The notes beneath the pieces were generated by a model that made no database searches, had not been told where the DNA came from, and worked only from the letters and a program-made list of their open reading frames with translations. A DNA stretch of 49,989 nucleotides, the filler included, from Jimgerdemannia flammicorona (lineage: Eukaryota), in the NCBI GenBank assembly GCA_003990765.1. It is 2 parts of 2 records of this genome, joined end to end, with 100 filler letters (N's around TTAATTAATTAA, not from the genome) between each part and the next. Parts side by side here need not be neighbours in the genome. Positions count along the whole stretch, not along the records: positions 1 to 24,946 come from RBNJ01000902.1; 1 more part is not named here. The stretch is one strand, 5' to 3'. The translations under genes were made by a program, and so were the position numbers. This document shows, in pieces, positions 2,132-45,119 of this stretch; the stretch's first letter is position 1; each line of letters starts with the position of its first letter.

Positions 2132-4200
2132 TATATATATATAAAGTAAGGACAGCTAAGAAGATTTATCAGATCTTCAGATATGTATCATGGTTGATCC
2201 CCAACTTGGAGTATATTATAGTCTCAGACTTCAGAGATCTATCAGTCCACCATATCAATGTACTAGAAGCTAGGGTGGCTACAGAAGCCCAGTACACTAT
2301 CACTCTCAATAGTGATGAGGTAGAAGACTTCTAGCATCCCATCTTCCAGAACAACCCAGACCAATTTCTGTAAGAATTAATCTCAGTATTCCAAGGCCCA
2401 AGCATTCAGGTTAGACCTCTCCAAGATCCCACATTTGTTCCCTATTTTGTGAAAGAGAATCTCATAGATTAGAGAGCTCCTGATTTCCCCACTAAATGTG
2501 ATAATGTCATTGGTGATGATATCATCCCATATGATATATATGAAATATACAACCTACATAATGATAATGAGATGGACAAAACATTTGCAGACCTCATCTC
2601 CTTTGAAGACATCCTGACCTTGGACAAGGATGAAGTCCCTATAGTTCTGAACATTCTGCTCTAAAGTCTCTTAGTTACACTGAATAATGTCAGCACTCTT
2701 TTTCTGTATAACAGCTGTTCTTCTACTAACATTCTGATGTGATACTGAATTATTCTAGTACTATTTTTCTGTATTACTGAAATTATACCAGCATCCTAAA
2801 CCTATGCAACCATTAGTGCCAACACTGAAACTTAGCAGTTTTTCATGTTCTGGTATTTTATTTTAGTTATTGGAATTTATATTTAGCTTTATATCTTAGT
2901 AATTATTGAATTATATTTTATATAAATACTCCTCTTATTTCTTCTGAAATAAAGTCAGTCTTCTTAGTATAATACACAAAATTCCTTACAAGCAATCTAA
3001 AGAGATAACAAGATAGTTTAAAGATAAGAAGTTTGAGAACTATAAGACCTTGGGAAGGCACTCTAATAAGAACTTGCTTATAACAAACTTGAGTTAGTCT
3101 AAGAGATACACCTTGAAGAGAATCTGATGTATTTGAAGAACTTAGTAATTACTATATAACACTACTGAAAATAAAGAAGAGAAGAAATATAATTATTATA
3201 TTTATTAATTGTTTCAGTAAGTAGGCTCATTTTGTTAATAACCACTACTACAATAGCTTCAGAAATAGTATAATTATTTATTGATAATATATTCTATCTC
3301 TATAGATTACTATTAGTAATTATCTCTGATAGAGATGTGAAATTTATAAGTAACTTTTAGTAAGTACTCTTCAAAGGACTAAGAGTATAACTCAAAATAT
3401 CTACTATCTATTATCTATAGATAGATAGCTAAATAGAATGAATAAATCAAACTCTAAAGCAGATGCTTAGTATCTACTATAACTATAAGTAAAAATTGAG
3501 ATAAAAAACTAATCTTAGCCAAATTTGCATATAATAACAATATAAGTATAAGTATAAAAATAATCCCATTCTATCTGAACTATAGATAATATCTTCAAAC
3601 CTCTATAAGTATTATACATATGAGTAATAGTATCAGTAATATAAGAAATTACTAATACTATATAAGATATTATTAAGTAAGTATACAATATTCTCATAAA
3701 AGTATAAAGAATATAAGTAGTATATACTAATAAAAATAGAAAAGAAGTTACTTATGAAAAAGATGAACAGGTATTACTCACTATACAATACTTAACTCTA
3801 GATAATATAAGACTAAAAAAGAAACTTGGACCTTATTATATTAGACTATATATTTAAGATCTTAGAGAAATATAGTCTTATTATATATAAGTTGAACCTT
3901 TCAATAACTCTAGCTATATATCAAAAATACTTTTAAAGAAAAAATAGTATTACTCTAAGATCTAATTATTATCAATTAAGAACTAGAATATAAAGTCAAT
4001 TATATTCTAAATTATAAGAACTACTAATTTGGATAAGCTACTAAGTTCATCTAGTACTATTTTATAAAATGAAAAGAATACTCTAAGTATGATACTATCT
4101 GGGAAAAAGAAGATAACTTTTTGTCAAATATAGAAGAAAATATAGATATTTAGTATAATAGAAATTCTGATAAATTTCTAAAAAAAAAACAATCATATCT
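2132..4200 (+). mobile_element. Heavily mutated Ty3/gypsy pol remnant (integrase core, possible chromodomain)
   Basis: Recognisable relics FSK*AHFV (~3210), IISDRDVKFISNF* (~3320) and a decayed STAYHPQTDGQTERMNQTLEQML (3400-3470). Many TAA/TAG stops. Boundaries are approximate. Confidence 0.7.
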
Positions 4201-7151
4201 CTAAATACTTCTGATGAAGAGAAGTAAAAATAATCTGAATAATTCTATATAGATAACTTACTACAATATAAATATCTAGCAAAGATACTAAGAACAAACT
4301 AAGAATAAGATCACTATTGTTATCTTTATGACTATTGAATATCAATGAAATTTTACCAAACTACTTCTATTAATATATGAATCTCTAGAGACTCAGATCC
4401 AAATGAAGCTCAATAATATCTTAGAAGAATTCAACATTTCTAGATCTTTCACTATTAATAAGAATTAAAAAAGTACTATGAAATTAGATATCTTATCTAT
4501 CAATAGTTACTCTCAGTAGTGCTAAGTAATGAGTCTATCTTTTTTATTAACAATTATATCTATATTATTATCAAAAGACTTTATATCCTTTTTTATACCT
4601 GACTCTAAGTTCTCAACTACCTCTATAGATATCTTCTAAGAATATTGCTAATTTGAGTAATAAATAATAAAATAATATTATCTTTTAAATAGTTTAATAT
4701 ACTACTCTTCAGTTTGATGAGTATTTAGAATTTAGTACTAAATTCAATAAGTAGATTCAGATGAAGAAAAGAAGAATATAACAAATGGTTATATATTTAT
4801 AAGTTATCAGAATTTCTAACTAGCAGTTATAGATATTGAATATAATATAATTATATAGATATATATATCTTATATATTATATTTAGTTATAGCTTAAATC
4901 TATATAAATACTCTCTATAATGAAAATGTTTTAACCTCAGTTTTGCTTTCTTCAATTATAAGAATAAAGTAGTATTCTTATTATAGAACTCTCAGATTTA
5001 ACTTATTAATAATTTTGAGCCTAATTAACTTAAGATATAAGTATAGTATTTTTTACAAAAACTCAAAAGTGATACTTAGACTATACTGCTGCAATAGATC
5101 ATTAGAACTTAGTACTTCTTTATAAGAACTCATAACTTAGGACTAATAGTTATTTTGATTAACTATAATATATTAATTTTATTAATATATAGTTTTATTA
5201 TATTTTATTTCTTTATATATTATTTTTATTAGTAGTAGCTAGATTTTTATATAACCTTTTCTATATCTTTACTATAGTTTTCTATTATTTTTCTATAATT
5301 TTAATAATATTTAAAACTTATAACTAGAATTATTATTTACTATTTTTTTTTTTTTTTTTTTTTTTTTTTATCTAAATTTTAAAAAAATAAATTAATTATC
5401 AATTATATATAATATAATATTAATAAAAAAAACTTTTTACAATAATATATTAATATTTTATTTAAGTATTTCTATTTTTATATTTTTATTTTTTATATTT
5501 CTATAGTATAACTATTATATAGTAATAATTAACTACTACTATGTATATTATATTAGTTTATAATAATATATATATATTTTTTAAAAAAAAACTTCTAAAA
5601 TTTATATAATAGATTTTTTAATTTTTAATTTTAATTTTAATTTTTATAATTAATAGATAAAAATATTTAAAATCCTATAAAAAAATCTTTAATAAAATTA
5701 AAAAAACATATATATATAATAAAAAAATTTATAAACAAATTTATTTATAAAATATTACAGTATAAGAGTTAAAATAACTTTTATATATTTATTGTAATAT
5801 ATAATAAAAAATAGAAAATAGATATATATATATTTGACTATAAATCTTAAGTCTAATTTTCTAATTTAGTATAGTATTTCTATAGTTTAGAAATTATTTT
5901 ACTGTAGAATATATCTAAAATATTTATTATGATAAATAGAAGAAGTAATTTATTCAAAAAAGCCTAAGTTATATATTTTATATATTACTAATAAATAATA
6001 TAAAACTAATAGAATAGTATGTGATATAAAGTCACATACCTACATATTGAGTTACTATCTCAATACTCTCACTTAAAGAGATATATATATATCAAAACCC
6101 CCCTCTAAAAAATATCAACTATATCTAAAAAGAAAGAATGCAAACTAGAATAAAAAAGTAATACAATATATATAAAAAACTAGAACTATATATAATCCAG
6201 AATTATAACTATATAGGAATTTTTGTAGATTATAAAGTATTCTGAAATATCCAAAATATCTGCTTATAAATGAGAGATATATTTCAGATGACTATTTATT
6301 GAGATCACTAGTTAGTATCATAGAAGTCAGATAACTATATACTACTCTTACTTAATCTAATATTTTGATATTATTGGCAGATATATATATGAATGTTATT
6401 CTTAGTTAACATAGTTATCATTATTATCATCATGCTTTTAGAATATATATTATTGTTAGTAATATCTGTACTGCTGAGATTATTGGTAGTACCTATGCTA
6501 TTATATTTATACTTTTACTAACTGATTATTTATGTGAATGTTACTGGCCTTATTGGCCTTCTCTGTACTTTTGACCTTATTAGTACTTCTTATCTTATCA
6601 GTAGTATCTTATTACTGACTATATTACTGATCTTATCAGTTTTATTAATCTCATTGGTCTTCTTTGTAGCCTTATTATCTATACTGACTTCATTTGTTAT
6701 ATTGAACTCATTTAGACTTGTTGGTCTCTTTCTGATCTCATTAGTCTTATTGGCCTTTTCTATAGTCTCATCTATATTTTAGACCTTTTAGCAGCATTAC
6801 TTGTCTTGTTTATAATTACCTTGTCTGGGTTTGTTGATCTCTTCCTGATTTTGTCAGTTTTATTGACCTTTTCTATAGCCTCATTAGCTGTATCTCATTG
6901 CTGGCTATGTTACTGACCTTGTTGTAATTACCTTAACCACTTGAGAGAGCTTTATAATTGTCTTAATACCAGAGAGAATTTCACCTACTATCTAGAAAGA
7001 CTTGTAATTACCTTGAATACCTGAGTAGATACCTTTATTATAATTACTTTCTGTCATTAGAAAGGACTTTGTTATTGCTATTAGTGAGCTTTTCTTATAA
7101 TAGGGCTTCATTTTCTATTACTAGGAGACTATTATAGAGATACTCATCTTG
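4200..7151. repeat. Extremely AT-rich, TpA-rich decayed repeat DNA
   Basis: Almost no CpG, T-runs and TA runs, short degenerate repeats (TTGTAATTACCTT-like, 6800-7050). 5930-6065 recurs at ~13613-13760. No family assignable. Confidence 0.55.
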
Positions 7152-7156
7152 ATACT

Positions 7157-8649
7157 TATAAAAGGGTTGCTTTTTAGGGTAATTGTTATGTAGTTCTAGA
7201 AGGGTTTTCTAGAGGTTCTGGATATTCTGGAAGACTGTTTTCTTATGGTCAAGATCAATTTCATATGGAGTATGTCCTCTATGCTTATTGATTTCAAGAT
7301 TAGATTGATGTCTCAATCAAAGTCCTTTTTTAGACTAGTTCTGGATGTTCAGGATTTTCCATATTTCAGAAAGTTCAAGAAACTAAGACCAGCTTAGTTG
7401 AATTGGCATATCGCTGCAGACAATACCCAATTAGGAAATTTCGTAATGGGGTTAGGAGTGGGACCTAATGGGGAGTGGATTTACTTAAAAATAGTTTGTA
7501 GATTATTAAATAGGTTTATTTGCTATTCATAATATTGCTATACTAGGAGTAGTTGTGTAAAGGGATATTGTGGGAAGTGCTCAGAAGTTGTGTTCAAATT
7601 GTTCAGGTCTGAGATTCTGAGGTCTGGGGGAGGGGATATTTATACTAGTGAGGGGCTATCTGAACTATACTAGATATGGATGTAGCACTTAGTGCTTTGC
7701 TGAGTCAGAATGTAGTTACATAGTACAAGTGTGATCTGATATATCAAGAGATCGTCTGACTGCTGAGTCAGTTCACAGTCATGTTGTATAAGGCTAATCT
7801 AACTATACTATGACTGCTAAGCTATTTATAGGTTTAGGTGTTATCTGGTTAGTCTTTGATGACATCACTATTGATGACATCATCACTGGCAAAGTCTGAG
7901 CAGTTTTCTGACTTCTGACATCATCAGTTTCAAGGTATCATCATTTTTATCTCTTGCAAGATTAAGGCTGTCCTTGGTGGTGGTGGTTGTATAAGAATAA
8001 CAGGTCTTGGTTCTCTTTTTTTTTTGATCTGCTGGTACCTTTGCAAGGACTGGCTATTCTTGTCTAGAGTAAGGGCTCTCAATGTTGTAGCTAGGGGTTT
8101 GAATCTCTCGAAAATAATATTTTCTATAATCTGAGGCAATTTCTAGTAGTAATATCTGTCACATGGATGGCTTGAGATTGGTTTCGATAATGTTGGCTTT
8201 TTTGAGTTCAGATGAAGCATCCATCACTCTCTGATGGAGGTGACACAGATAGAGTGAACAGAGTTGTTCAAATGTGTTTTGCTTCTGCTAAGTAATGAGG
8301 TCTTGTATAGTCATAGTGTATCTTGGTCTTGAGTTGATAAGTGCAGTTCATGAACCTTTTGGTAGATGAGATAGAGTTCTTCTTATCTCAATTTGAGTTT
8401 GGTACCTTCGGTTTCCTTTTGTAATAGTACAGTATACCAAACTAGTTATAGCAGTTCAGAGTCTGTCTTATGGTTGTAGTACTTCTTCTAGTATTCTTAT
8501 ATCTTGGCAGTGGGTTCTCGTGCTTGCTGGCATATTTTGTGTAACCATATAATCTCTTCAGTAACTTGTTTTGTAGTCTCACATATGGTTTCCAAATTAG
8601 TTCTGAGGATATCATACAATTTTGGTAGCTTAGAGGTTGTGCACTTACA
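7157..8649 (-). repeat. Element A 3' LTR
   Basis: Begins TGTAAG after the PPT and ends in a mutated CTTACA. Direct repeat of 12043-13535. TATA-like CTATAAATA at ~7823-7831 (minus). Confidence 0.92.
7883..8314 (-). pseudogene. Decayed ~143-aa ORF in U3 of element A (second copy ~12769-13200), unknown product
   Basis: MTIQDLIT*QKQNTFEQLCSLYLCHLHQRVMDASSELKK...KLMMSEVRKLLRLCQ* in a single frame. The three internal stops are all transition-type, and one is TGG in the other LTR copy. Confidence 0.5.
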
Positions 8650-9609
8650 ACTCTCTCCTTCTTAGCTTTTGACATCCTCGTCAGGGCCTTCTAATTTTTT
8701 CTGGTGTTGTTGTACCATTTGGATGATTCTTGTGGCTATATTTGTTGAGGATTTGTTCAACTTTGTATTCTTCTTGGTCATTAATAATGACAGGTGTAGG
8801 TGGTTCTGTGGTTCAGTTTGGAAATGTGTCTTGGAATTTCTAGAGTAGTGGTCTGATATAGCTGTCAACTTTGGAAAAGTCTTCTTCAAAGTTCTCAGGT
8901 TCTCCTTTGGATGGGCAGATGGAGATGGCGAAGAGAGGGCATTTCTTGGCTAATTTCTTGAGTTATAGCTTGTTGATGTAAGTGATCTTTGGTCCAGGGT
9001 CACTAGAATTAAGTGGGTCCTTTTCGCCTTGCAGTTTGAAGTTGTAGTGTCCTTTCTTGATGGTCAGAGAATGGTTTACCCAATTGATCATGGGGTTCTC
9101 TTGTTTTAACCATAGAGTCCCAAGGATGATTTCATTGTCAGAAAGTGGTATGATTTGGAGGGTAACATGTACTCAGTAGTTGCCAATTCAGAAGGGTAGA
9201 TTGTGGACTTCTTTGCTAATAATATGTGAGGTTCCATCAGCTGTAGCAACTGCTTGAGTTTGTTGTACTGGAGAGGTGAAGACCTTGAGTCTGTTGGCTG
9301 TCTCTTCATTGATGAAGTTGCCTGAGGCACTACTGTCTATTATAATCTTGACAGGTACTCAGTTGACAAAAGCTTTAAGTGTAAGCAGTTTGTCTGATCC
9401 AATGGTGGTGATTTCAGTTGTAGGAGCTTTCCTTCTGTTGGTTCTTCTTTGAGCCAGTTCATTGATACAAGAGAAGCAATCATCAATTATTCAGAAAAAG
9501 TACATTCCAATACCATGTGGGCATTGGCCACTTGGTACATATCTGTCTTTGATCTTCTTGTAGAATTGTTCTTCTTTACTCATGGTAGGTTGGACTGGGG
9601 CCTTGTTTG

Positions 9610-10020
9610 ATGAGCCAAATCCTTTGGATCCTCAGATGATAGGTAGTAGTTCAGAGACTTCCTTGACTGTCAGGGTTGACTCAATTTTTTTGAATAGGAT
9701 CTGGGCAATGTAGAAACCTATGGGAATCTTGAAGGGTGTCCAACTATGGTTTCAGATGAGGACAATAATTTCGCCTGTGTAATCTTTGTCAATGACTCCT
9801 CCTTCTACTGAGAGTCCTTTTAATGCTAGACTACTGCAACAGCATATTCTTCTAACATATCCTTCAGGGATTTGGATACTGATTCCTGTATAGACTTATT
9901 TGACTTCTCAGTTGGAAACTGTAACTTCTTCGGCTGCATACAAATCATATCCAGCTGCCTTTTGACTTCCTTTGGTTGGGGTCTTGGCAGTTTGTCTTAA
10001 CTTGACAAAGTCCAGTGTTC
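9610..10020 (-). pseudogene. dUTPase domain of element A
   Basis: Minus strand reads LDFVKLRQTAKTPTKGSQKAAGYDLYAAEE...SSLALKGLSVEGGVIDKDYTGEIIVLI...KGFGSS, covering trimeric dUTPase motifs I-V. Confidence 0.88.
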
Positions 10021-12024
10021 TGGTGGTCAGGTTATTGAGGTGGTGCAGAGTGGTAACAGTTGCTTATATTACTGTTTGGGGTTTTCAGTTAGGGCAGGCA
10101 CTGGCCATATGTCCTGTCTTTCAGCAATAGAAGCATGCTCTACTTCTTCGAAGTTCATTTCTTTCGCCTTCAGTGAGTTTTTTGAAGGTACTTAGCTGGG
10201 TAGGTTCATGATTTCTGGGTGTCCATGAGGTGGATGTGGAGGGAGCTCGGGGTGCTTCATGCTTGGGTTCTTCTTTCTTGGTCTAAGTCTTTTTCTTGTT
10301 ATTGAATTGTCTTCAGGGCAGAATTGGTCCAGCTGTTAGGATTTGCTTGACCATAGTCTTGATTCTTGTCAGGCATCATTGTTGGTAATCACAACCAACT
10401 GGGTGGCCTTGTTCTTGGATTTTTCTAGTAAACCATTCAGGCAGTATATCGAATAAATGGTCTGCTCTTGTACCATTTTGTGCTTCATCATTGGCAATAT
10501 ATCCTAGGCCAACAGTGTTCAGGAGTGACTCGAGTTTTGTACAGAAGATTTTGAATTCTTCTTTGCTATATATATTGAATTTGAGATTGCAGAGTTTTAC
10601 TCAGGATTCAGCGATTATAATTTCACTGTGATATTGAGCAATCATGAGTTGTTTGAGTCCAGGGGCTACAGGATGGGCTCTATATCCTGGGCATTGTTTG
10701 CTACATTTTGAGCAACTACTGCAGGTCGGGTATCCCATGTAAGGAGTTTTTCAGGAAGGGTTCACCACCATTCTTCGGCAGGTCCTTAGAAGAATGTAAC
10801 AACTCAGCAGACATAGGCTGTAGTGGTAGCAAAGAGTTGTTCCAGAGTGTGGTCTTGATTGTTTGTCAGAATGCAATCAGCAACTCGCTCATTGGTCTAT
10901 TGATTGGCTTTGAAATTGGTGTCAACTATACTAATGAAGCTTTGGACCTCTTGTACAGTACCATTGAAGGTGGGTAGGCTCAGATTTTTGGTAGGTTGGA
11001 TCTGTTCAGCTAAGGCAGTAATGGTTGCTGCTATTATTACTACCTGAGCTGTAAGGTCTAGAATCTGTTGATTCACCATGTTGTTTACTGGAGGTGGTTG
11101 GACTACTGATAGTGGTGTTACTGATACTACTTGAGGTACTGGTGCAGAGTGTGATGGGGTTCTTTGGGTCTATATAAGTTGCTGAAGTAGTAGTTGTGGG
11201 TCTGGAGTGAGGGCTTGATAGATAACTGTTTATTGCTGTATAGGTGTATTCTGTCCTAATGGAGGTACTTCTCCTTCAGTGGTATATCTGGGATCAAATT
11301 TACTGAGATACTCCTCCTTCTCTTTGGTTTGGTCTCCATGTAGTTGGGTTTGCTCAGTGTCAAAGTAGACGGAATCAGTTATATATCTGATTTCAGATGG
11401 ACTTAATTCAAAGTCAAGTTCAGGTTCAGTGTTGGTTTCAGATTCAGATAGGGCTGTAGCAGGGCCTGCTTTAGGTTCAGGGTCAGGTAGTTGATGAAGG
11501 GTTTCTCTTGCTTCTTCTTTAAGAATATAGTGGGCCTTGCTGTTCTGGAATTGGTATTATAGTGCAGTCTTGGTCCTGGTATGGTAAAAGTTGGTAGAGT
11601 TGAGCCACTTGGCTACAGAGGCTTGGGCTTCATGAGGAACTAAGGCTAGAAAGACTACTGCTGGTTGTCCTAGGTCACTCAGATTTGTAGAGCTGACAAA
11701 ACTTTTATTGAGAAGAGTAAAGAAGGCTTCAATAAGACCTTCTTTATCTTGACTTGCTGGGTGTAGTACAAGGAGTTCAGTGAATAGGGTTTTGCCTATT
11801 TGCTGATTTAATTGGAGTACTTTATTCTTTGAGTGAAGTTTGTCTCACTTGTTGTAGATATGGAGGTCAAATTATCCTTGTACATCAGGTTCAATTCTCT
11901 TCAGATTGTCAGATAGTCCAGAATAAATTTCAGTTCAGAGGTTGGGCTTTATACCAACTTGTAGGAATTTGCAGAGGGGTTTTGTAGCTGAGTGAGGAAG
12001 CATCTTGAAGTGGAATTAGATTGT

Positions 12025-12039
12025 AAACTGCTGCTACCA
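12025..12039 (-). other. Primer binding site of element A (TGGTAGCAGCAGTTT, likely tRNA-iMet)
   Basis: Starts 3 nt after the 5' LTR end. TGGTAGC matches the 3' end of eukaryotic initiator tRNA-Met. tRNA identity is inferred. Confidence 0.65.
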
Positions 12040-12042
12040 AGT

Positions 12043-13535
12043 TATAAGAGGGTTGCTTTTTAGGGTAACCATTATGTAGTTCTGGAAGGGTTTTTTGGAG
12101 GTTCTGGATATTCTGGAAGACTGTTTTCTTATGGTTAAGATCAATTTCGTATGGAGTACATCCTCTATACTTATTGATTTCAAGATTGAATTGATGTCTC
12201 AACCAAAGTCCTTTTTTGGACTAGTTCTGGATGTTCAGAATTTTCCATATTTCAGGAAGTTCAAGAAACTAAGACTAGCTTAGTTAAATTGGCATATTGC
12301 TGCAGACAATACTCAATTAGGAAATTTCATGATGGGGTTAGGAGTGGGATCTAATGGGGAGCAGATTTACTTAAGAGTGATTTGTGGGTTATTAAATAGG
12401 TTTATTCACTATTTATGATATTGCTATACTAGAAGTAGTTGGGTAAAGAGATATTGTGAGAAGTGCTCAGAAGTTGTGTTTGAATTGTTCAGATCTGAGA
12501 TTCTGAGGTCTGGGAGAGGGGGTATTTATACTAGTGAGGGGCTATCTGGACTATGCTAGATATGGATGTAGCACTTAGTGCTTTGCTGAGTCGGAATATA
12601 GTCACATAGTACAAGTGTGATCTGATATGTCAAGAGATCGTCTGACTACTGAGTCAGTTCACAGTCATGTTATATAAGGCTAATCTAACTATACTATGAC
12701 TGCTAAGCTATTTATAGGTTTAGATGTTGTCTGGTTAGTCTTTGATGACATCACTATTGATGACATCATTACTGGTAAAGTCTGAGCAGTTTTCTAACTT
12801 CTGACATCATCAGTTTCAAGATGTCATCACTTCTATCTCTTGCAAGATTAAGGCTGTTCTTGGTGGCAGTGGTTGTACAAGAATAACAGGTCTTGGTTCT
12901 CTTTTTTTTTTGGTCTGCTGGCACATTTGCAAGGACTGGCCATTCTCATCTAGGGCAAGGGCTCTCAATGTCGCGGCTGGGGGTTCAAACCTCTCGGAAA
13001 TAATATTTTCTATAATCTGAGGCAATTTCTAGTAGTAATATTGGTCACATGGATGACTTGAGATTGGTTTCGACAATGTCGGCTTTCTTGAGTTCAGATG
13101 AAGCATCTGTCACTCTCTGACGGAGGTAACACAGATAGAGTGAACAGAGTTGTTCAAATGTGTTTTGCTTTTGCTAAGTAATGAGATCTTATATAGTTAC
13201 AGTGTATCTTGGTCTTGAGTTGATAAGTGTAGTTCATGAACCTTTTGGTAGATGAGATAGAGTTCTTCTTATCTCAATTTGAGTTTGGTACCTTCAGTTT
13301 CCTTTTATAATAGTATAGTATACCAAACTAGTTATAGCGATTCAGAGTCTGTCTTATGGTTGTAGTACTTCTTCTAGTATTCTTGTATCTTGGCGGTGGG
13401 TTCTGGTGCTTGCTGGCATATTTCATATAACCAGATGATCTCTTCAGTAACTTGTTTTGTAGTTTCGCATGTAGTTTCCAAATTAGTTCTGAGGATACCA
13501 TGTAATTTTAGTGGCTTGGAGGTTATGTACTTATA
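12043..13535 (-). repeat. Element A 5' LTR
   Basis: Same length as and colinear with 7157-8649. Followed on the minus strand by the PBS. Confidence 0.92.
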
Positions 13536-23247: not shown

Positions 23248-23458
23248 TGTTTGTTCCTCAAGAAGAGGCGGTTATGCAAGTGATCGGCGGGCGATCAATT
23301 GGAATGGGGAATGGGGAGTGGGGAATGAGCATCAACCAAGCCACATTGGACATTCATTGGACGGACGGATGGTCACTGACGTCACTTGGTCGCCAAACGT
23401 GACGCTTCCTGTTGATGTCTGGGCTGTTTCCCGTCTGTCTGTTGTGCCAAACCTAATC
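23248..23458. promoter_or_regulatory. Putative bidirectional promoter between TERT and the 5-phosphatase gene
   Basis: 211 bp between divergent ATGs. CRE palindrome TGACGTCA at 23377-23384 and three ATTGG (CCAAT) boxes at ~23298, 23345 and 23356. Confidence 0.6.
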
Positions 23459-25046: not shown

Positions 25047-27190
25047 ATGTGTTGATGATAAAGAAGCTCAAGCACTCCGAGAAATCCTGAACAATGATGA
25101 TGCAGACAAATATACCCAGTATTATCAATACTAACTGAAAGACTGCTATCTACTATAAGGACAGATTGTATATTCCAAACAATTGAGATCTCTGAAGGAC
25201 TATCCTATTTGAATCTCTTATAGCTGGAAATTTAGAATTTGATAAATACTATGAAGTTATTTCCTGAAACTTCTATTAACCCTATATGACAGATTAGCTA
25301 AAGACCTATATTACTTCTATGATACCTATCAATGTAACAAGTCCTCAATACTAGTAAAACCTGACCTACTCTATCTCATCTCAGTACTATCTGCCAATTG
25401 AGAACAAATCTCTATGGACTTTATTGTACAACTACTCTGAACCAAGAATGAGAAAGATGTAATTATTATCTTCATAGACAATTTCAACAAACAAGCCCAC
25501 TTTGTGCCAACTACTACTACTGCAATAGTACCAGATATAGTCATACTCTTGTTTGATAATATTTTCCACTATTATAATCTTCCCAAGATCATTATTAGTA
25601 ATCAAGATCTGAAATTTACTGGCCATTTTTGGAAAGTCCTACATGTATACCTTGGAACAAAACTTGTACTATCTACAACCTTTTATCTCAAAACTGATGG
25701 TTAAACTGAAAGAATGAATCAAACTCTAGAATAAATGCTAAAGAACTATGTCTCTTATAGATAAGATGATTGGTATGAACACTTTACTGTAGTTTAGTTT
25801 ACCTATAATAATAGCAAATAAGTCTCTCTTGAAATAACTTTGTTCTTTATCAATACTGGACAAAATCTAAACACCTCTCTGATACTTATCAGAACTACTG
25901 ATAAACCCTCTACTATTGAAGCTGTTGAAGAATTCCTACTCCAAATATACAACTTAAGTCAGATTACAATTGAGAATTTATTCTGAGCTCAAGAACAATA
26001 GTCACAGTATTTTAATCAGCATTACTGAGAAGAAACTTTTGATATCAGAGAAAAAGTTCTACTAGATATCTGAGGATACTAAGTTGACAACCTCAAATAT
26101 AGACTATCTATAAAGCTGAACAGCAAATTTATTGAACTATTTGAAGTTATTATACAAGTCTCTCCAACTTTCTACAAATTGGTACTACAAGATACTATTA
26201 AATTTACCTAGTCTTCAATGTCCAACATCTTAAGCAATATAATGAAAATGATGATGAGCTATTTCTGAACTAAACTGCAAAACTGCCTGCACCTGTCATT
26301 ATTAATGATCAAGAAGAATATAAAGTTGAACAAATTCTCAACAAATATAGCTACAAGAATCATCCAGAATACCTTGTCAAATAGAAAGGTTATCTGATCT
26401 ATAATGTAACATGGAAACCCAAGACCAATCTCCAGAATACCACAGATCTAGTTTAAGAATATAATTCTTTGAACAACTGAAACCTGAATACTCCAGTACC
26501 TATCAGTCTATACTATATATTACCCCTTCCAAACATTAAGTACTCTTATAATTATCATAAATAAAATCAAGAACTCAGCAAGCCAAGATAGAAGAATACC
26601 AACCCTCTAGAAAAATAGCAAAACTGAAAGCAATCTATTCTCTCTGCACCACTGGTGAGAAATAAGATATAGATATTTAAGAAGATTTCTTAGAGAAAAT
26701 TCTCTAGTAGTAAATAATATCAGAATCACTTCTGGTATAAAGCATTAAATATATGACTCTTTAATATATAAATTCAATATATTAGGCAACTATACTACAA
26801 GTATACCACTTTCTGAGAAAAATAAATATTATCAGACTTTTGATCATCTAAATAATATAACAATACTAGATCAAATTTAGAAGACCTCAATAAGAATGTT
26901 GAAAGCTAAGAAGGAGAGAGTTGTAAGCATACAATCTCCAAGCCACTAAAATCACACATCACCCTCAGAACAAATTAGGAAATTATATATAAGATCATGA
27001 AGCTGAGTCAAACTGAAGTTATAGAGCACAAAGCTGAGTCAACTCAAAGTTATAAAATACAAGATTACAAAAACAGAACCTTACTAATTAGGACCAAATA
27101 TATATATACTAAGTACTTAGATATATTGAAATGAAGAACTATAACAAACCAAACAAATAACTATAACTCTTGAATATATATATAAACATG
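25047..27190 (+). mobile_element. Decayed copy of family A/B: integrase, chromodomain, PPT and first ~270 bp of 3' LTR
   Basis: Colinear with 41963-43430. PPT at ~26908-26921 and LTR start TGTAAG at 26922. Confidence 0.88.
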
Positions 27191-30100: not shown

Positions 30101-30290
30101 AGAGAAAGTCTTCAAAGAACTCAAGAACTACATGACTATAGCACCAATCCTTATGTGCCCCAATCTACAGAAGTCATTCATCTTGCACTAATAATATTCA
30201 GATAATATAAGACTCAGACAACACTTTCTGCAATGTTTTTGATAAAAAGAAACTATCAACATAGATAGCAATAAGTATACTAGTGAGTAT
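27190..30290 (+). mobile_element. Decayed copy of family C pol (Cys-rich region, dUTPase, RT, start of RNase H)
   Basis: 27190-27385 matches 48843-49035. RT motifs [46 protein letters not shown] and YIDD (~29745). RNase H start PNLQKSFILH (~30160). Confidence 0.88.
28325..28740 (+). pseudogene. dUTPase domain of family C
   Basis: KAHPEDIEYDLHS...LISRSGL...TIDPEYTAEIKVILYN...GQKIAEVVF...KGFRSS, i.e. decayed motifs I-V. Confidence 0.82.
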
Positions 30291-30294
30291 ATTG

Positions 30295-35274: not shown

Positions 35275-37336
35275 TGTAAGCACACAACCTCCAAGCCACT
35301 GAAATTACATGTCACCCTCTGAACAAGCCACTGAAATCACATATGACCTCTGAACAAATCTGGAAATCACCTGCTTGATCATGAAGCTGAGTCAAACCGA
35401 AGTCACAGTGCACAAAGCTGAGTCAATATGAAGTTACAGAATACAAGATTTACACAAATGGAATCTTACCAATCAGGATCAAATGTATATATACCGAGCA
35501 CCGAGATATGTCAAATCAGAGAACCAAAACAAACAACAACTACAACTTCCAAACACACAAACATGACCACTGAGATCTATACTCATATCCGCGCTGACAT
35601 TTGGAATGCTATTTTCAACTGAGCCACACCCCCTCTACCCCTCATGAATATCCATAGCCTAGCACCCCTCTACTTCGTGGAAGCCTGATGGAATGCTCTG
35701 AACATACTTAGCAAGGCCCACTGAATTGGACAAATCTCAAGCTACTACCAGATCAGCTGCCTCCTAGAAGATATGATTGAACACCACCATGATATAGACA
35801 TCACCCAGATGTCTCAACACCAGAAGCTTATCACCCGCAAACATCGAGAACTCTTCTATCAGTATAGCACCATTATTCTCTACCTCTGAGTTACCACAGC
35901 TGAAATGGTTGCTACCCTGTCCTATGGCCAAATCGATGACATGATACAAGAACTCAACCACAAGTACCTCAAGTATATCGAAACCACAGACAGAACCTTC
36001 CCACACCCCAATGATCATATCCTGCAAATGCCCCAAGTTGGATATGCCATGAAGGACATCTATGATATAATCCACTTCAATGAAGATGAAGCAGAAGACA
36101 ATGATCCCTCTGACACCAACATGACCTCTAGCCAAGGATCTCTACCAACCCTGATCACACTACCAACCTTGCTGATGAACTTACAACAATTCATAACAGC
36201 ATATGAGACTTATTGGGACAATGACCACTGGTATGAATACTAACCTGCATTCACTCCTGATTACTTCAACTACAATGAAGAGACTGGAGAACACAACCTG
36301 TACCTCCAGACAACCCTCGAGATTGAATCAACCACTCTACCACCTGAGTACAAGCAACATGAACTACAGCCCCCAGCTTACTACAACCCCACAACTCATA
36401 GTGCTGTAACCTACAGAAGGTATGCAGATAGCGAATCTGATGAAAGTGAAGATGATGTACCCCTCCTCCACCCACCAACACCTTATCTAGCATATGAGAC
36501 AGATGATGCTATTCTGTGGGATGGTGATGAAGTTCCAATGTATTATTACCTCAGTGAATAAGGAGAAGTAATCTGCGAACCACTCTTCCTAGATGACTAC
36601 TTTATCAGAGATAATGCAATTGATGGTGATGTCATCAAAGACTACCCAGACAGTGCCTAAACCTATAAATAGTCTAGCAGTCATAGTATAGTTAGATTAG
36701 CCTTGTACAATATGACTGTGAACTGACTCAGCAGTCAGATGATCCCTTGATATATCAGATCACTCTTGTACTATATGACTGCATTCCGACTCAGCAAGGC
36801 ACTTAGTGCTACATCCATATTCAGCATAGTCCAGATAGCCCCTCACTAGTATATATACCCCCTCTCCCAGACCTCAGAATCTCAGACTCAAACACACAAG
36901 AACATTCCTGAATATTTCTCCACAATATCCCTTCACACAACTACTCTTAGTATAGCAATATCATAAATAGCAAATAAACCTATTCAATAACTACAAACCA
37001 CCCTTAAGTAAATCTGCTACCCATTAGGTCCCACTCCTAACCCCACTATGAAATTTCCTAATTGGGTATTGTCTGCAGCAATACGCCAATTCAACTAAGC
37101 TGGTCTTAGTTTCTTGAACTTCCTGAAATATGGAAAATCCTGAACATCCAGAACTAGTCTGAAAAAGGACTTTGGTTGAGACATCAACCCGATCTTGAAA
37201 TTAATAAGTATAGAGGATATACTCTATATGAAATTGATCTTGACCATAAGAAAACAGTCTTCCAGAATATCCAGAACTTCCAGAAAACCCTTCCAGAACT
37301 ACATAACAGCTACCCTAAAAAAGTAACCCTCTTACA
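35275..37336 (+). repeat. Element B 5' LTR (2062 bp)
   Basis: TGTAAG/CTTACA termini. TATA-like CTATAAATA at ~36664. The first 1.27 kb is repeated at 43632-44900. Confidence 0.92.
35563..36660 (+). pseudogene. ~365-aa ORF in U3 of element B, unknown product with acidic C-terminal half
   Basis: Single frame MTTEIYTHIRADIWNAIF...DGDVIKDYPDSA*. Most stops are sense codons in the other LTR copy (e.g. TGA 35620 vs CGA, TAA 36241 vs CAA). Confidence 0.75.
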
Positions 37337-39354
37337 ACTTGGTAGTAGCAGTTTACAACCCAATTCCACTTCAAGATGTTTCCTCACCCCACTATAAACC
37401 TCTCTGCGAATTCCTACAAGTTAGTATAAAGCCCAACCTCTGAACTAGAATTTATCCTGAACCATCTGACAATCTGGAGAGAATTGAACCTAATGTATAA
37501 GGACAATTTGACCTCTACACCTGCAACAAGTGGGACAAACTTCATTCAAAGAAAGAAGTACTCTGATTAAACCAACAAATAGGCAAAACCCTATTCACTG
37601 AACTCCTTGCACTACACCCAGCAAGTCAAGACAAAGAAGGTCTTATTGAAGCCTTCTTTACTCTTTTCAATAAGAGTTTTGTTAGCTCCACAAATCCAAG
37701 TGATCTAGGACAACCAGCAGCAGTCTTTCTAGTCTTAGTTCCTCACGAAGCCCAAGCCTCTGTAGCCAAGTGGCTCAACTCTACTGACTTTCACTGTACC
37801 AGGACCAAGACTGTATTATACTATCGATTCCAGAACAGCAAGGTCCACTATATTCTTAAAGAAGAAGCAAGAGAAACCCTCCATCAACTACCTGACCCTG
37901 AACCTGAAGTAGGCCCTGCTACAGCCCTACCTGAATCTGAAACCAATACCAAACCTGAACTTGACCTTGAATTAAGTCCATCTGAGATCAGATATACAAC
38001 TGATTCTGTCTACTTTGATACTGAGCAAACCCAATTATATGGAGACCAAACCAAAGAAGAGGAGGAGTATCTCAGTGAATTCAATCCCAGATACACTACT
38101 GAAGGAGATGCCCTTCCATCAGGGTAGAATACACCTACTCAGCAACAAACAGCTATCTATCAAGCCCTTACTCCAGATCCACAACTATTACTCTAGCAAC
38201 TTATACAGACCCAAAGAACCTCATCATACTCTGCACCAGTACCTCAAGTAGTATCAGTAACACTACTACCAGCAGTCCAATCGCCTCCAGTAAACAATAT
38301 GGCAAACTAACAGATTCTAGACCTCACAGCCCAGGTAGCCATAATGGCAGCAACCATTACTGCCTTAGCCGAACAGACCTGACCTACCAAAAATCTGAGC
38401 CTACCTACCTTCAATGGTACTGCACAAGAAGTCCAAAGCTTCATTAGTGTAGTTGACACCAACTTTGAAACCAATCAATGGACCAATGAGTGAGTTGCTG
38501 ACTACGTTCTGACAAACAATCAAGACCACACTCTGGAACAACTCTTTGCTATCACTACAGCCTATGTCTGCCGAGTTGTTATATTCTTCTGAGGACCTGC
38601 CGAAGAATGATGGTGAACCCTTCCTGAAAAACCCCTCATATGAGATACCCGACCTGCAGTAGTTGCTCAGAATGCAGCAAACAATGCCCCAGGATATGGA
38701 GCCCATCCTGCAGCCTCTGGACTCAAACAACTCATGATTGCCCAATACTGCAGTGAAACCATGATCGCTGAATCCCAAGTAAAACTAAATTCGATATATA
38801 TGGCAAAGAAGAATTTGAAACCTTCTGTACAAAACTCGAGTCACTCCTGAACACTATTGGTCTAGGATATATCGCAAATGATGAAGTACAAAATGGTACA
38901 AGAGCAGACCACTTATTTGATGTCCTGCCTGAATGGCTTACTAGAAAAATCTGAGAACAAGGCCACCTAGTTGGTTGTGACCACCAACAATAGTGCCTAG
39001 CAAGAATCAAGACAATGGTTAAGCGAATCCTAACAGCTGGACCAATTCTGTCATGAAGATAATTCAACAATAAGGAAAGGACTTGAACTAAGAAAGAAGA
39101 ACCCAAGCATGAAGCATCCCAAGCTCTCTCCACATCCATCTCTTGGATACTCAGAAATCATGAACCCACCCAGTCAAGTACCTTCAAGAAACTTACTGAA
39201 GGCAAAAGAAATGAACTTCGAAGAAGCGGAGTATGCTTCTATTATCAAAAGACAGGACACATGGCCAGTGCCTGCCCTAACCGAAAACCCCGAACAGCAA
39301 TAAGAGCAACTGTTACCACTCTGCACCACCTCAACAACCTGATCACCAGAACAC

Positions 39355-39760
39355 TAGACTTTGTGAAGTTAAGACAAACTGCTAAGGCCCCAACCAAAGG
39401 AAGTCAAAAAGCAGCTGGATATGACCTGTATGCAGCTGAAGAAGCTACAGTTTCCAACTGAGAAGTCAAACAAGTCTACACAGAAATCAGTATCCAAATC
39501 CCTGAAGGACATATTAGAAGAATATGCTGTCGCAGCAGCCTAGCATTGAAAGGACTCTCAGTAGAAGGAGGAGTCATTGATGAGGATTACACAGGCAAAA
39601 TTATTGTCCTCATCCAAAACTACAGTTGGACACCCTTCAAGATCCCTATTGGTTTCTGCATCACCCAGATCCTATTCGAAAAAATCGAGTCAACCCTGAT
39701 AGTCAAGGAAGTCCCTGAACTACTGCCCGCCATCTAAGGATCCAAAGGATTTGGCTCATC
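39355..39760 (+). pseudogene. dUTPase domain of element B (between Gag knuckle and protease)
   Basis: AAGYDLY, RSSLA, GGVIDEDYTG, ITQILF, *GSKGFGSS. Confidence 0.9.
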
Positions 39761-42700
39761 AAACAAGGCTCCAGCCCAATCTACTATGAGCAAAGAAGAA
39801 CAATTCTACAAGAAGATCAAAGATGGATATATACCAAGTGGCTGATGCCCTCATGGCATTGGAATGTACTCTTCCCGAATGATTGATGATTGCTTCTCTT
39901 ATATCAATGAACTGGCTCAAAGAAGAACCAACAGAAGGAAAGCTCCTACAACTAAAATCACCACCATTGGATCAGACAAACTGCTCACACTTAAGGCTTT
40001 TGTCAACCAAGCACCTGTCAAGATTATGATAGACAGTAGTGCCTCAGGCAACTTCATCAATAAAGAAACAGCCAACAGACTTAAGGTCTTCACCTCTCTG
40101 GTACAACAAACCCAAGCAGTGTCCACAGCTGATGGAACCTCACATGTTATTAGCAATGAAGTCCACAATCTATCCTTCTGAATTGGCAACTACCAAGTAC
40201 ATGTTACCCTCCAAATTGTACCACTTTCTGACAATGAAATCATCCTTGGAACTCCATGGTTAAAACAAGAGAACCCCATGATCGATTGGGTAAACCATTC
40301 TCTGACCATCAAGAAAGGATGCCACAACTTCAAACTACAAGGCGAAAAGGACTCACTTAATTCTAGTGACCCTGGACCAAAGATCACCCACATCAACAAG
40401 CTACAACTTAAAAAATTGGCCAAGAAATGCCCTCTCTTTGCCATCTCCATCTGCCTATCCAATGGAGAACCTGAGAACTCTGAAGAAGATTTTTCCAAAG
40501 TTGACAGCTATGTCAGACCACTACTCCAGAAATTTCGAGACATATTCCCAAAGAAACTCCCAAAAGGCCTACCTTCTAAATGAGCAGTAGACCATACCAT
40601 CAAGACTATCCCAGATGCCAAACCAGTCTTCAAGTCAATCTATCACATATCTCTGAGAGAAATCGATGTACTCAAGAAAGAAATTGATGAACTTCTAGAA
40701 TAAGGATTCATCAGACCCAGTGTATCACCCTATGGTGCACTGGTCCTCTTTGTTGTCAAAAAAGGAGGAGACCTGTGAATGTGCATTGACTACCATGATC
40801 TCAATGAGCAGATCATCAAGAACTATTGCCCACTACTGAGGATCAATGAAATATTCAATAGACTTACCAACCCACAATTCATGAGCTCTTTTGACCTGTG
40901 AAATAGCTATTGGCAAATTGCTATAAAAGAAGAAGATATCTACAAAACAGCTTTCCGAACTCGCTATGGACACTTCAAGTTCCTGGTTATGCCCTTTGGC
41001 TTAACTAATGCTCCAGCAATCTTCCAGACACTAATGAATACCATTCTGCATTCATACCTAGACAAATTCATTGTTGTCTACATTGATGACATCCTAGTCT
41101 TCAGCAAAACACTGGAGGAACATCTTGAACACCTTGAACTAGTACTACTGAAACTCCAAGAAAACTGACTCTTTGCAAAACTCAGCAAATGTGAATTTCT
41201 TCTAATTCCTTGGACACATTGTCACTCCAAATAGAATCAAAGTGGACTCCAGCAAAATCTCTGCAATCAAGGATTGGCCCAGACCCAAGAAGCTGAAAGA
41301 TCTCCAGTCATTCCTGGGATTAGCAAACTATTACAGGCAATTTGTTGCCAACTTTGCTAAAATCACTACCACCCTCACCCAAATAACCAAGCATAGCAAG
41401 AAACAAGAACAACCCTAGATAATAAAACAAGAGAAAGACTTCAACAATCTTGTAACTTGGGGACCTGAGCAAGATACTACCTTTCAAGCACTAAAGGATG
41501 CCCTGATAACCACTCTAGTACTTCAAGCGACAAACCCTACACTGCCATATGAAGTTATCACTAATGCCTCTGACCTAGCCCTTGGAGCAGTACTCATGCA
41601 AGAAGGACACCCTGTGGCCTATCACTCCTGCAAGTTCAATGATACTGAAATTAACTATGCAACCCATGAGAAGGAAATGCTAGCCATTGTAGATACTCTG
41701 ATCAAATGGCAACCCTACCTAGAAGGAGCATACTTCACTGTATTGACTGACCAAAAATCATTAGTCAATATCAAGACACAGGCTACCCTTTCTTGAAAGC
41801 AAGCCAGATGGATGAAAGTTCTCACTAACTTTGACTACAAAATCCAGTACCACCCTGGCAAGGAAAATATTGTTGCCGATGCAATCTCCAGACCACCAAT
41901 CAAAGAGGTTATCCAAACTCTCACCTTGGTTACAAACTCCATCATAGAACAAATTATCACAGTATGTGCCAATGATAAGGAAGTTCAAGCACTACAAGAA
42001 ATCCTGAATAGTGATGATGCTGATAAGCATATACAGTATCATCAATACCAACTGAAGGATAATGCTATCTACTACAAAGACAGACTATATATCCCAAACA
42101 ACCGAGACCTCCGAAGGACTATCCTATTCGAATGTCATGATACCCCTCCCCTACAGCTGGATATTTAGGATTTGATAAATGTTACGAAGTTATCTCCTGA
42201 AACTTCTATTGGCCCCACATGGCAGATCAGCTCAAAACCTACATCACTTTCTGTGATGCCTGCTAATGAAATAAGTCCTTAACACTAGCAAAACCCATCT
42301 TACTTTACCCTATCCCAGTACCATCTGTGAATTGGGAACAAATCTCTATGGACTTCATTGTACAACTACCCTGAACTAAGAACAGGAAAGATGCAATTGT
42401 TGTCTTTGTAGACTATCTCAGCAAACAAGCCCACTTTGTGCCTACTACCACTACTGCAACAGTACCAGACATAGCCACACTCTTGTTTGACAACATCTTC
42501 TGCTATTATGGTCTTCCCAAGATCATCATTAGTGACTGAGACCCAAAATTCTCCAGCCATTTTTAGAAAGCCCTTCATGCATACCTTGGAACAAAACTTG
42601 CACTATCTACAGCCTTTCATGTCGAAATGGATGGTCAAACTGAAAGAATGAACTGAACTCTGGAACAAATACTAAGGAGCTATGTTTCCTACAGACAAGA

Positions 42701-43631
42701 TGACTGGCATGAACACCTCACTGCAGTCGAGTTTGTTTATAACAACAGCAAGCAAGCCTCTCTCGGAATGACTCCATTCTTTGCCAATACTGGACAAAAC
42801 CCAAACACCCCTTTGACACTTATCTGAACCACTGAAGAACCCTCTACAGTCGAAGCTGTTGAAGAATTCTTACTCCGAATGCACAATCTAAGCCAGATTG
42901 CCATTGAGAATTTATCACGAGCTCAAGAACAACAGTCACAGTATGTTAACCAATACTGCCAAGAAGAAACCTTTGATATTGGAGAAAAAGTTCTACTGAA
43001 CATCAGAGGATACCGAATTGACAACCTCAAGCACAGACCATCTACGAAGCTGAACAGTAAGTTCATTGGACCATTCAAAGTCATTGCACAAGTCTCTCCA
43101 ACCTCCTACAAATTGGTACTACTAGATACCATTAAGATTCACCCAGTCTTTAATGTTCAACATCTCAAGTAATATAATGAGAATGATGATGAGCTATTTC
43201 CAAACCAGACTACTAAACTACCTGCACCTATCATTATTAATGACCAAGAAGAGTATAAAGTTGAACAAATCCTCAACAAATGTGGCAACAAGGGCCACCC
43301 TGAGTACCTTGTCAAATGGAAAGATTACCCAATCCACAATGCAACTTGGGAACCCAAGACCAATCTCCAGAATACTACTGACCTAGTTCAGGAATATGGT
43401 TCCTTGAACAACTAGAACCAAATACTCCACACCTATCCATACATACTATGTATATATTATCCTCCCGAACATTATAATTATTGCAAACCAAACCAAGAAC
43501 TCAGCAAAACAAGACAAGAATACTGACCCTCTGAAAAAATGGCAAAACTAAAAGCAAGCCTATTCTCCCTGTACCACTGAACAAAATTAGAAGGCCCTGA
43601 TGAGGATGTCAAAAGCTAAGAAGGGGAGAGT

Positions 43632-44900
43632 TGTAAGCACACAACCTCTAAGCCACTGAAATTACATGTCACCCTCTGAACAAGCCACTGAAATCACATA
43701 TGACCTCTGAATAAATCTGGAAATCACCTGCTTGATCATAAAGCTGAGTCAAACCAAAGTCACAGCACACAAAGCTGAGTCAATATGAAGTCACAGAACA
43801 CAAGATTTACACAAATGGAATCTTACCAATTAGGATCAAATGCATATATACTGAGCACCGAGACATGTCGAATCAGAGAACCAAAATAAACAACAACTAC
43901 AACTTCCAAACACACAAACATGAACACTGAGATCTATACCTATATCTGCACTGACATTTGGAATGCTATTGTCAACCGAGCCACACCCCCTCCGCCCCTC
44001 ATGAATATCCATAGCCTAGCACCCCTCTACTTCATGGAAGTCTGATGGAATGCTCTGAACATACTTAGCAAGGCCTATCAAATCGGACAAATCTCAAGCT
44101 ACTACCAGATCGGCCACCTCCTGGAAGATATGATCGAACACCACCATGATACAGATATCACCCAGATGTCTCAACACCAGAAGCTTATCACCCGCAAACA
44201 TCGAGAACTCTTCTATAAGTATAGTACCATTATTCCCTACCTCCGAGTTACTACAGCTGAAATGGTTGCTACTCTGTCCTATGGCCAAATCGATGACATG
44301 ATACAAGAACTCAACCACAAGTACCTCGAGTACGTTGAAACCACAGACAGAACCTTCTCACACCCCAATGATCATATCCTGCAAATGCCCCAAGTTGGAT
44401 ATGCCATGAAGGATATCTATGATATAATCCACTTCGATAAAGATGAAGCAGAAGACAATGATCCCTCTGATGCCAATATGACCTCTAGCCAAGGATCTCT
44501 ACCAACCCTGATCACACCACCAACCTTGCCGATGAACTTACAATAATTTATAACAGCATACAAGACTTATTGGGACAATGACCACTGGTATGAATACCAA
44601 CCTGCATTCACTCCCGATTACTTCAACTACAATGAAGAGATCAGAGAATACAATCTGTACCTCTAGACAACCCTTGAGATTGAACCAACCACTCCACCAC
44701 CTGAGTATAAGCAATATAAACTACAGCCCCCAGCTTACTACAACCCTGCAACTCATAGTGCTGTAACCTACAGAAGGTATGCAGACAGTGAATCCGATGA
44801 AAGTAAAGATGATGTACCCCTCCTCTGCCCACCAACACCTTATCCAGCATATGAGACAGATGATACTATTCTGTAGGATGGTGATGAAGTTCCAATGTAT
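43632..44900 (+). repeat. Element B 3' LTR (partial)
   Basis: Direct repeat of 35275-36543. Similarity stops abruptly at TGTGAC 44901. Confidence 0.92.
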
Positions 44901-45048
44901 TGTGACAAACCAAGACATACTACCCGAATCATATCTTTACCAGATGATGTGAACAAGATGACATGAATACTCAGCTTAGTAACCAGTAACCATTTGCTGT
45001 GGAAACTGTATAAATAGCTGGACATACCAGAAAGGGTCTGTTTACCTA

Positions 45049-45119
45049 TACAGACTCTGTACACTGTACAGACTCTGTACACTGTACAGGTCCTGTACAC
45101 CATACAGACTCTGTACACC
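45049..45119 (+). repeat. 4 x 18-bp tandem repeat (TACAGACTCTGTACACTG) in element C LTR
   Basis: Directly visible, lying between two TATA-like boxes (~45010, ~45177). Confidence 0.85.

Follow-up and report, generated by a model that had tools for sequence, protein, structure and literature searches.

The window analysed here, by which we mean the whole stretch of 49,989 nucleotides, filler included, comes from Jimgerdemannia flammicorona (NCBI GenBank assembly GCA_003990765.1) and consists of two parts joined end to end across 100 filler letters, positions 1 to 24,946 being drawn from RBNJ01000902.1. It contains two elements, here called A and B, of one long terminal repeat (LTR) retrotransposon family of the Ty3/gypsy chromovirus type, together with a fragment, C, of the same family. 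Our subject is the U3 region of their LTRs, which in B appears to hold a decayed open reading frame (ORF) and in A holds an unrelated block of sequence. An earlier note on this DNA had proposed that U3 acts as a cassette slot in which different accessory genes, encoding about 143 amino acids in A and about 365 in B, are exchanged within the family. We consider it about 75% probable that A and B are one family in which B carries a genuine accessory gene in its LTR, and that A has lost this gene or had it replaced with non-coding sequence. The two elements were recognised by self-comparison of the window and a four-way alignment of the LTRs, and the features on which the argument depends are as follows.

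35275..37336, plus strand: 5' LTR of element B, 2062 bp, TGTAAG...CTTACA
35381..36598, plus strand: B-specific U3 block, unlike A; left edge fuzzy (35332-35381)
35388..35495, plus strand: candidate, wholly hypothetical promoter module upstream of the B ORF, with TGAGTCA at 35388 and 35419 and GTATATATACC at 35485-35495
35563..36660, plus strand: B U3 ORF, 365 codons and stop, LTR positions 289-1386, with six in-frame stops in this 5' LTR copy
36599..37336, plus strand: LTR part shared with A at 88% identity, containing the ORF tail, TATAAATAG (36664), GTATATATACC (36849-36859), AATAAA (36973) and the putative R-U5
37337..43631, plus strand: B interior, with primer-binding site (PBS), gag, dUTPase, protease, reverse transcriptase (RT), RNase H, integrase, chromodomain and polypurine tract (PPT)
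43632..44901, plus strand: B 3' LTR, incomplete, broken at about 44901 by a nested LTR element, D
43920-44900, plus strand: second copy of the B ORF, in the 3' LTR, 327 codons with four stops
7157..8649, minus strand: 3' LTR of element A, 1493 bp
7837..7893, minus strand: putative vestige, in A, of the end of the B-type ORF, LTR 757-813, matching the last 18-19 residues of the relative P0003, with an in-frame stop
7883..8314, minus strand: putative '143-aa ORF' of A, with three internal stops; its twin at 12769-13200 has five stops and no ATG
7896..8574, minus strand: A-specific U3 block of about 680 nt, non-coding in every test run and unique in the window save for its twin in the 5' LTR
8650..12042, minus strand: A interior, with gag, dUTPase and protease only
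12043..13535, minus strand: 5' LTR of element A, 1493 bp, with the A-specific block at about 12782-13460
7152..7156, partner at 13536-13540: target-site duplication (TSD) of A, AGTAT, 5 bp
25047..27189, plus strand: fragment C, comprising the 3' end of pol, the PPT and the initial 270 nt of an LTR of B type

Both elements have LTR termini of the form TGTAAG...CTTACA, that is TG...CA inverted ends; the PBS-like sequence TGGTAG(T/C)AGCAG lies 3 nt 3' of each 5' LTR, and in A, B and C alike the PPT AAGCTAAGAAGGGGAGAG precedes the 3' LTR. Over 3.2 kb the interiors of A and B have 89% identity, in agreement with the shared interior that the earlier note had described. Pfam domains in B follow the order dUTPase, Asp protease, RVT_1, RT_RNaseH, Integrase_H2C2, SH3_Tf2-1 and Chromo, and those of A are dUTPase and protease only. 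The direct LTRs and short TSD of A, the PBS and PPT, and the domain order of B with its C-terminal chromodomain are the features by which the family is assigned to the chromoviruses; the 3' end of B falls outside the window. The equivalent of B 40553-43195, encompassing RT, RNase H and integrase, is gone from A with a 9-nt overlap at the junction, and approximately 290 bp more is missing near the chromodomain; since RT, RNase H and integrase have been deleted, A is a non-autonomous deletion derivative. As a separate observation, the dUTPase domain is placed between gag and protease in both elements (B 39381-39761, plus strand; the A equivalent on the minus strand within 8650-12040; Pfam E 1.5e-28 and 1.8e-29), and a dUTPase domain is also present in an unrelated gypsy fragment at 27190-30300.

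The LTR lengths previously given, 1493 bp for A and 2062 bp for B, are exact in the LTR alignment, and so in outline is the pattern of matching ends around an unlike middle. At the start, 40-44 of the first 60 nt are identical, with weak similarity continuing to about nt 110 (70% over 115 columns). At the other end, A LTR 755-1493 corresponds to B LTR 1325-2062, approximately 740 nt at 88% identity. The motif GATGTCATCAAAGACT, from which the second match had been said to run, has three occurrences in the window, one in each complete LTR, against an expectation of zero, and the homology sets in some 30 nt upstream of it. Between these ends the middle blocks (about 680 nt in A and about 1220 nt in B) gave nothing below E 0.019 in a sensitive blastn comparison (word size 7) and nothing below E 0.099 in tblastx, so that their lack of homology is upheld. 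The structural difference between A and B is correct and is not due to chance: in this comparison of two LTR types, interior and R-U5 are shared and U3 is unalignable.

The B block contains a coding frame. It lies in frame 1 of the LTR, opening with an ATG at 35563 and closing with a stop at 36658-36660, which falls 3 nt before TATAAATAG. Across the 327 codons common to the 5' and 3' LTR copies there are no indels, and all but one of the in-frame stops are sense codons in the other copy, the exception being a stop that both share. When the undeaminated base is taken at every site where the two copies differ by a transition, one stop is left in 327 codons, against a six-frame minimum of five in 300 shuffles. 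Three-base periodicity is strong in both copies (chi2 68.9 and 53.0, compared with 48.7 for gag, 51.6 for RNase H and 1.7-12.5 for non-coding controls) and persists in 429-nt windows (25-51). Base composition and codon-position pattern are those of gag and pol, unlike those of the host TERT gene.

Relatives of the frame exist outside the window. A full HMMER scan of 1.84 billion representatives with the B ORF yielded four proteins at E<=0.001, two of them convincing. P0004 (128 aa, 82% identity) begins at the methionine of B and has sense codons at all four B stops within B codons 1-128, including the stop common to both B copies; P0003 (247 aa, 61-65% identity, intact) aligns from codon 115, reads past the B stop at codon 333 and reaches the same ...YPDS end. 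The remaining two, P0005 (E 4e-6, with a six-fold internal repeat) and P0006 (E 3.5e-4), are repetitive proteins with short matched stretches and were set aside as spurious. Word-based searches for further relatives returned one of 380 candidates of similar length and one of 29 shorter candidates, and added nothing.

Over 95% of the differences between paired LTRs are transitions, mostly in CpA and CpG contexts, and the observed/expected ratio of CpG is 0.15-0.20 in elements A and B versus 1.07 in the host gene region (15000-24900). Given this transition-biased decay of CpA and CpG, the B stops are the expected product of damage resembling repeat-induced point mutation (RIP) or driven by methylation, through C->T and G->A changes; for the same reason, LTR divergence was rejected as an estimate of age. 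The B block passes the stop-count, periodicity and homologue tests of coding signal, which marks it as a real protein gene, both copies of which in the window are dead. The frame of about 365 aa reported by the earlier note is confirmed, though with six stops in the 5' copy and four in the truncated 3' copy.

The A block gives the opposite result in the coding tests, and the 143-aa ORF claimed for it does not survive inspection. Of its three stops in one copy and five in the twin, which also lacks an ATG, two are common to both LTR copies. With transitions corrected in the same way, five stops are left in the best of the six frames of the block (about 640 nt tested) and the longest ORF is 87 codons; both values fall within the range of the shuffles, in which the minimum number of stops averages 7.8 and the longest ORF averages 78 codons and reaches 141 at most. 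Periodicity is absent both from the block (chi2 6.5 and 11.4) and from the supposed frame (4.9). None of seven candidate homologues of its read-through translation reached E<=0.1, and Pfam returned nothing significant for the frame or for the two longest ORFs of the block, one per strand (best E 0.14). Composition is A-rich and G-poor, like the non-coding leader of the element itself. By the tests run, the A block therefore reads as non-coding, and the notion of two U3 blocks each with a conserved frame fails on the A side; the absence of a frame conserved across copies had been named in advance by the earlier note as grounds for abandoning its model. Other identities for the block were tried and discarded: no Rfam family or tRNA was found in the A region that would indicate an RNA gene or short interspersed nuclear element; sensitive blastn and tblastx were empty for a diverged B block; the sole match to other window sequence is the twin in the other A LTR; and no terminal inverted or direct repeats mark the edges as those of a nested element.

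The direction of change can be read from the right-hand junction. Homology between A and B resumes at 36599, 62 nt before the B ORF stop, and when P0003 is compared with the A LTRs only its last 18-19 residues align (47-50% identity), collinear with the nucleotide homology. Because the ORF and its tail are shared with a relative at about 61% identity, the ORF is taken to be older than the split between A and B; and because A keeps the tail of this older, B-type ORF, A is the derived state, with change running from B-type to A-type. What separates the two is consequently that a repeat-borne accessory gene was lost or replaced, not that one gene was exchanged for another. Block boundaries are identical in both A LTRs and A has a TSD, from which it follows that the altered U3 passed through reverse transcription at least once.

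The sequence of events we favour would be as follows. The B-type would be the autonomous-type form, bearing a 365-codon sense-strand gene wholly inside the LTR, between a U3 leader of about 290 nt and the promoter-proximal part of U3; since both LTRs receive their U3 from the 3' end of the RNA, each insertion would duplicate the gene. In A, some 1220 bp, comprising the remainder of the leader and ORF codons 1 to about 345, would have been replaced by about 680 bp of unrelated non-coding sequence, so that the last 20 or so codons alone survive as a remnant, and the altered U3 would then have cycled through at least one reverse transcription, presumably mobilised in trans. The only cis requirements of U3 may be a 5' end recognised by integrase (the shared 60 nt or so) and the promoter-proximal 3' part, leaving the middle free for gain, loss or exchange, whether through template switching of co-packaged RNAs or through deletion and insertion. 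The comparison supports the view that, within this one family, the central part of U3 can be dispensed with and replaced. Of the cassette-slot idea, then, the replaceable middle and the real ORF of the B version stand; the exchange of two accessory genes does not, as A is apparently non-coding and keeps the B-ORF tail.

Downstream of the B ORF, in the part conserved between A and B, are TATAAATAG (LTR 1390), GTATATATACC (1576) and the sole AATAAA (1699), an arrangement that would place the ORF in U3, with the promoter at one of the two downstream TATA-like boxes and AATAAA at LTR 1699 as the poly(A) signal. A module of similar appearance precedes the ORF, with TGAGTCA at LTR 114 and 145, GTATATATACC at 211-221 and an A/C-rich leader, the ATG following 77 nt on, and in the shared LTR part TGACTCA occurs at 1450 (in A also at the equivalent of 1513), before the second GTATATATACC. 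Ten of the 13 TGASTCA sites of the window fall in these LTR copies, amounting to only four distinct sites. Expression of the ORF may be from a subgenomic transcript starting at the second promoter-like module, or from the 3' part of the element RNA. It is conceivable, if rather doubtful, that the 2-kb LTR is a self-contained gene carrier, in which the orphan gene in U3 has its own copy of the promoter module and uses the poly(A) signal of the element; were this so, both LTRs, and even solo LTRs, would express the gene independently of gag-pol, and non-autonomous lineages could shed or replace it. Inverted repeats flanking the ORF (35386-35448 and 36699-36795) were considered as transposon ends or as an RNA clamp and dismissed, as 7 of 60 shuffles reach the best arm score and A shares the part in which the right arm falls. 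As a further observation, A has three TGATGTCA (ATF/CRE-like) sites at LTR 727, 768 and 783 (window 7867-7923 region), just upstream of TATAAATAG, where B has one, at LTR 1353; this difference suggests that the two LTR types may differ in their regulatory inputs.

The B ORF product is acidic (pI 4.1-4.3) and Tyr-rich (8.6-9.3%), and a low-confidence model has a helical N-terminal third followed by a remainder rich in Pro, Tyr, Asp and Glu. Probably largely disordered, it could be a putative trans-acting accessory factor of the element.

Several results weigh against a working accessory gene in B that was lost from A. Pfam at E<=10 found no families for P0007, P0003 or P0004; a PDB profile search gave no matches at E<=1 for the B ORF product; the ESM Atlas supplied no usable feature match, its structure rows having TM <=0.30; and AlphaFold2 on a four-row alignment produced a model with pLDDT 33, which is unusable. 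In public protein sets the relatives of the ORF are two, both single-member clusters on contigs of about 1 kb. The window holds two LTR types only (one copy of A, with B and fragment C making up the B-type), and the tests applied to the A block would miss a highly diverged or very short gene. The U3/R boundary is placed from the TATA-like boxes, AATAAA and the transversion pattern only, and the inverted similarity of the two promoter-like modules is likewise reached by 7 of 60 shuffles.

Other explanations of the same facts differ chiefly in where the two blocks came from. An exchange of different accessory genes in a U3 slot agrees with the two non-homologous blocks between shared LTR ends and with the reality of the B ORF, and it might draw further encouragement from fragment C, which departs from B 5 nt after the ORF ATG and continues, from that same codon, in an open frame of 132 codons; what follows that junction, however, is the interior of another gypsy element (dUTPase and RT over 3 kb) with no R-U5, so that C as a third cassette was rejected as the likeliest reading. 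With the A frame interrupted by three and five stops (two of them shared), devoid of periodicity, within shuffles for stop count and lacking a homologue, and with the B ORF tail retained in A, we regard such an exchange as highly unlikely. The C junction itself (27186-27190) shows 3-nt microhomology (GAC), the sequence beyond it is homologous to 48842-49030, and the break coincides with the ORF start codon. Alternatively, the B ORF could be foreign cargo, either a transduced fragment of a host gene or a gene of some other mobile element inserted once into U3. That LTR retrotransposons take up fragments of genes is documented, with 20 such elements in a 22-Mb maize region in the portion of that study consulted (PMC2773423), and the B ORF has no recognisable retroelement domain. 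Yet no cellular homologue was found among the 1.84 billion representatives, base composition and codon-position pattern fit gag and pol and not the host TERT gene, and no TSD or terminal repeats surround the block; moreover, the start of the ORF, and its end by the TATA region, are preserved in relatives at 82% and 61-65% identity, which implies long residence. An origin as cargo consequently seems improbable.

It is also unlikely, on present evidence, that the ORF lies outside U3, with transcription from the upstream TATA-like box (LTR 212) placing it in a very long R or leader, ahead of every other ORF of the genomic RNA. The GTATATATACC and two TGAGTCA sites 77 nt upstream of the ATG and the A/C-rich leader before it would suit such an arrangement, and A too has a TATA-like box at a similar LTR position, but an R of about 1.5 kb would be required, and the stretch downstream of the ORF that A and B conserve holds two more TATA-like boxes and the sole AATAAA. 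Transversions, used here because they are less affected by the deamination process, bear on this point: those fixed between A and B in the shared part are at LTR 1335-1745 and end just past AATAAA, with none in the last 317 nt, a limit that fits an R/U5 border and has other possible explanations. The same data allow A to be seen as a recombinant, with a B-like body and the U3 of a more distant subfamily acquired by template switching, the A block then being the long-diverged regulatory U3 of that subfamily. Transversion rate climbs towards the block, from 20/3215 in the interior through 12/735 in the LTR part common to both (Fisher p 0.011) to 6/60 over the initial 60 nt, as would be expected had U3-R come from a somewhat more distant relative, the crossover falling close to the R/U5 border and just past AATAAA (1699); the three TGATGTCA sites before TATAAATAG, against one in B, agree with this, and the same mechanism is proposed for crapaud and for Ty1/Ty2 hybrids in the excerpts consulted (PMC10787394). 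Set against it, no clear rise in divergence is seen in the 3' end of pol and the PPT beside the block (2 transversions in 146 sites), and the gradient is accounted for equally well if U3 and R are under weaker constraint. We hold this recombinant origin to be possible though short of probable; it is compatible with the loss or replacement of the gene in A, and refines the mechanism of that change.

The remaining contents of the window are chiefly other repeats and one host gene. Element D (44902-49100, plus strand), nested in the B 3' LTR, has gag at 46295-47875 with a zinc knuckle and protease at 47879-49111, in frames that are long and open with one in-frame stop between; it is GC-richer than A and B and may be much younger. 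An element resembling a long interspersed nuclear element (LINE) occupies about 30330-35270 (plus strand), with two RVT_1 matches and a plus strand strongly skewed to G over C (GC skew up to +0.57). B is inserted straight into this first LINE-like copy, and the 5' end of a second copy (about 49330-49989, plus strand) interrupts D. Adjoining A, positions 3001-7000 are very AT-rich, with a GC content of 11.5% in 5001-6000, and a repeat at 5922-6065 matches 13612-13759 (82%) on the opposite side of A. The left end of the window bears an inverted repeat of about 395 bp (12-406 and 940-1334, 92% identity). The host gene, at about 15000-22650 on the minus strand, encodes telomerase reverse transcriptase, with Telomerase_RBD at 18734-18997 (above the Pfam cutoff) and a sub-threshold TEN_TERT match at 22090-22449; within this region both strands are open for about 386-389 codons at 20888-22071, and there is an internal direct repeat at 21445-21802.

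If the U3 ORF is a working gene, LTR retrotransposons other than retroviruses can carry genes in the segment that is duplicated with each insertion and left behind in solo LTRs, the annotation of long LTRs, which are usually taken as non-coding, would change, and an orphan protein family would join the accessory factors of retroelements. The A/B pair offers a natural comparison, with and without the gene, of its effect on the element.

Among known systems, the closest in position is the sag gene of mouse mammary tumour virus (MMTV), a superantigen ORF on the sense strand of a betaretrovirus. It lies in the U3 of the LTR, so that both LTRs carry it and the genomic RNA has it downstream of pol. 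The B ORF, in its putative U3 location, resembles it as a sense-strand protein gene within U3 and has no sequence relationship to it; MMTV, besides, is an animal retrovirus whose sag has known splicing, promoters and function. Elsewhere, lineage-specific extra genes, often orphans and gained or lost between related elements, are a point of likeness with the additional ORFs (aORFs) of plant LTR retrotransposons and the varied ORF3s carried by bdelloid rotifer elements, according to the sections consulted (PMC7264820; PMC5408684). Unlike the B ORF, the plant aORFs lie in the internal region and not in the LTR, mostly in the interval between pol and the 3' LTR and also upstream or downstream of gag-pol, and a term search of that review, itself consulted in part, found none described as in, within or inside an LTR (PMC7264820). 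A term search likewise found no mention of extra ORFs in a survey of fungal LTR retrotransposons (PMC3248453), and the open-access literature, queried with a few phrasings and represented by excerpts, yielded for a protein gene inside U3 only the retroviral cases of MMTV and foamy viruses and no LTR retrotransposon.

Modular U3 regions are familiar from two other systems. The Tnt1, Retrolyc1 and Retrosol elements of Solanaceae are modular in the same sense as A and B, with a shared coding region and a differing U3 regulatory region, but they belong to the copia elements of plants, and their U3 modules are short non-coding regulatory repeats, as far as the part of the account consulted goes (PMC1838419). 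Nearer still is crapaud of the Podospora anserina complex, likewise a fungal chromodomain gypsy element with variation confined to U3 and with R-U5 and interior conserved; its 14 subfamilies have LTRs of 339-443 bp, the variable part measures less than 200 bp and precedes the TATA box, and recombination or template switching is discussed as the source of U3 variation, in the extracts consulted (PMC10787394). It differs in that no U3 ORF was found in those extracts, whereas here the blocks measure 0.7-1.2 kb and one is a gene (PMC10787394). The earlier suggestion that the arrangement is undescribed in fungi must accordingly be narrowed: diversification of U3 alongside a conserved R-U5 is known from crapaud (PMC10787394), and what stands of the suggestion is the U3 protein gene, not found for any LTR retrotransposon in the literature searched, as far as the excerpts reach. 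Subfamily-specific U3 regions and deleted, non-autonomous copies are thus already known, and what sets this family apart would be a conserved orphan gene resident in the U3 of a chromovirus.

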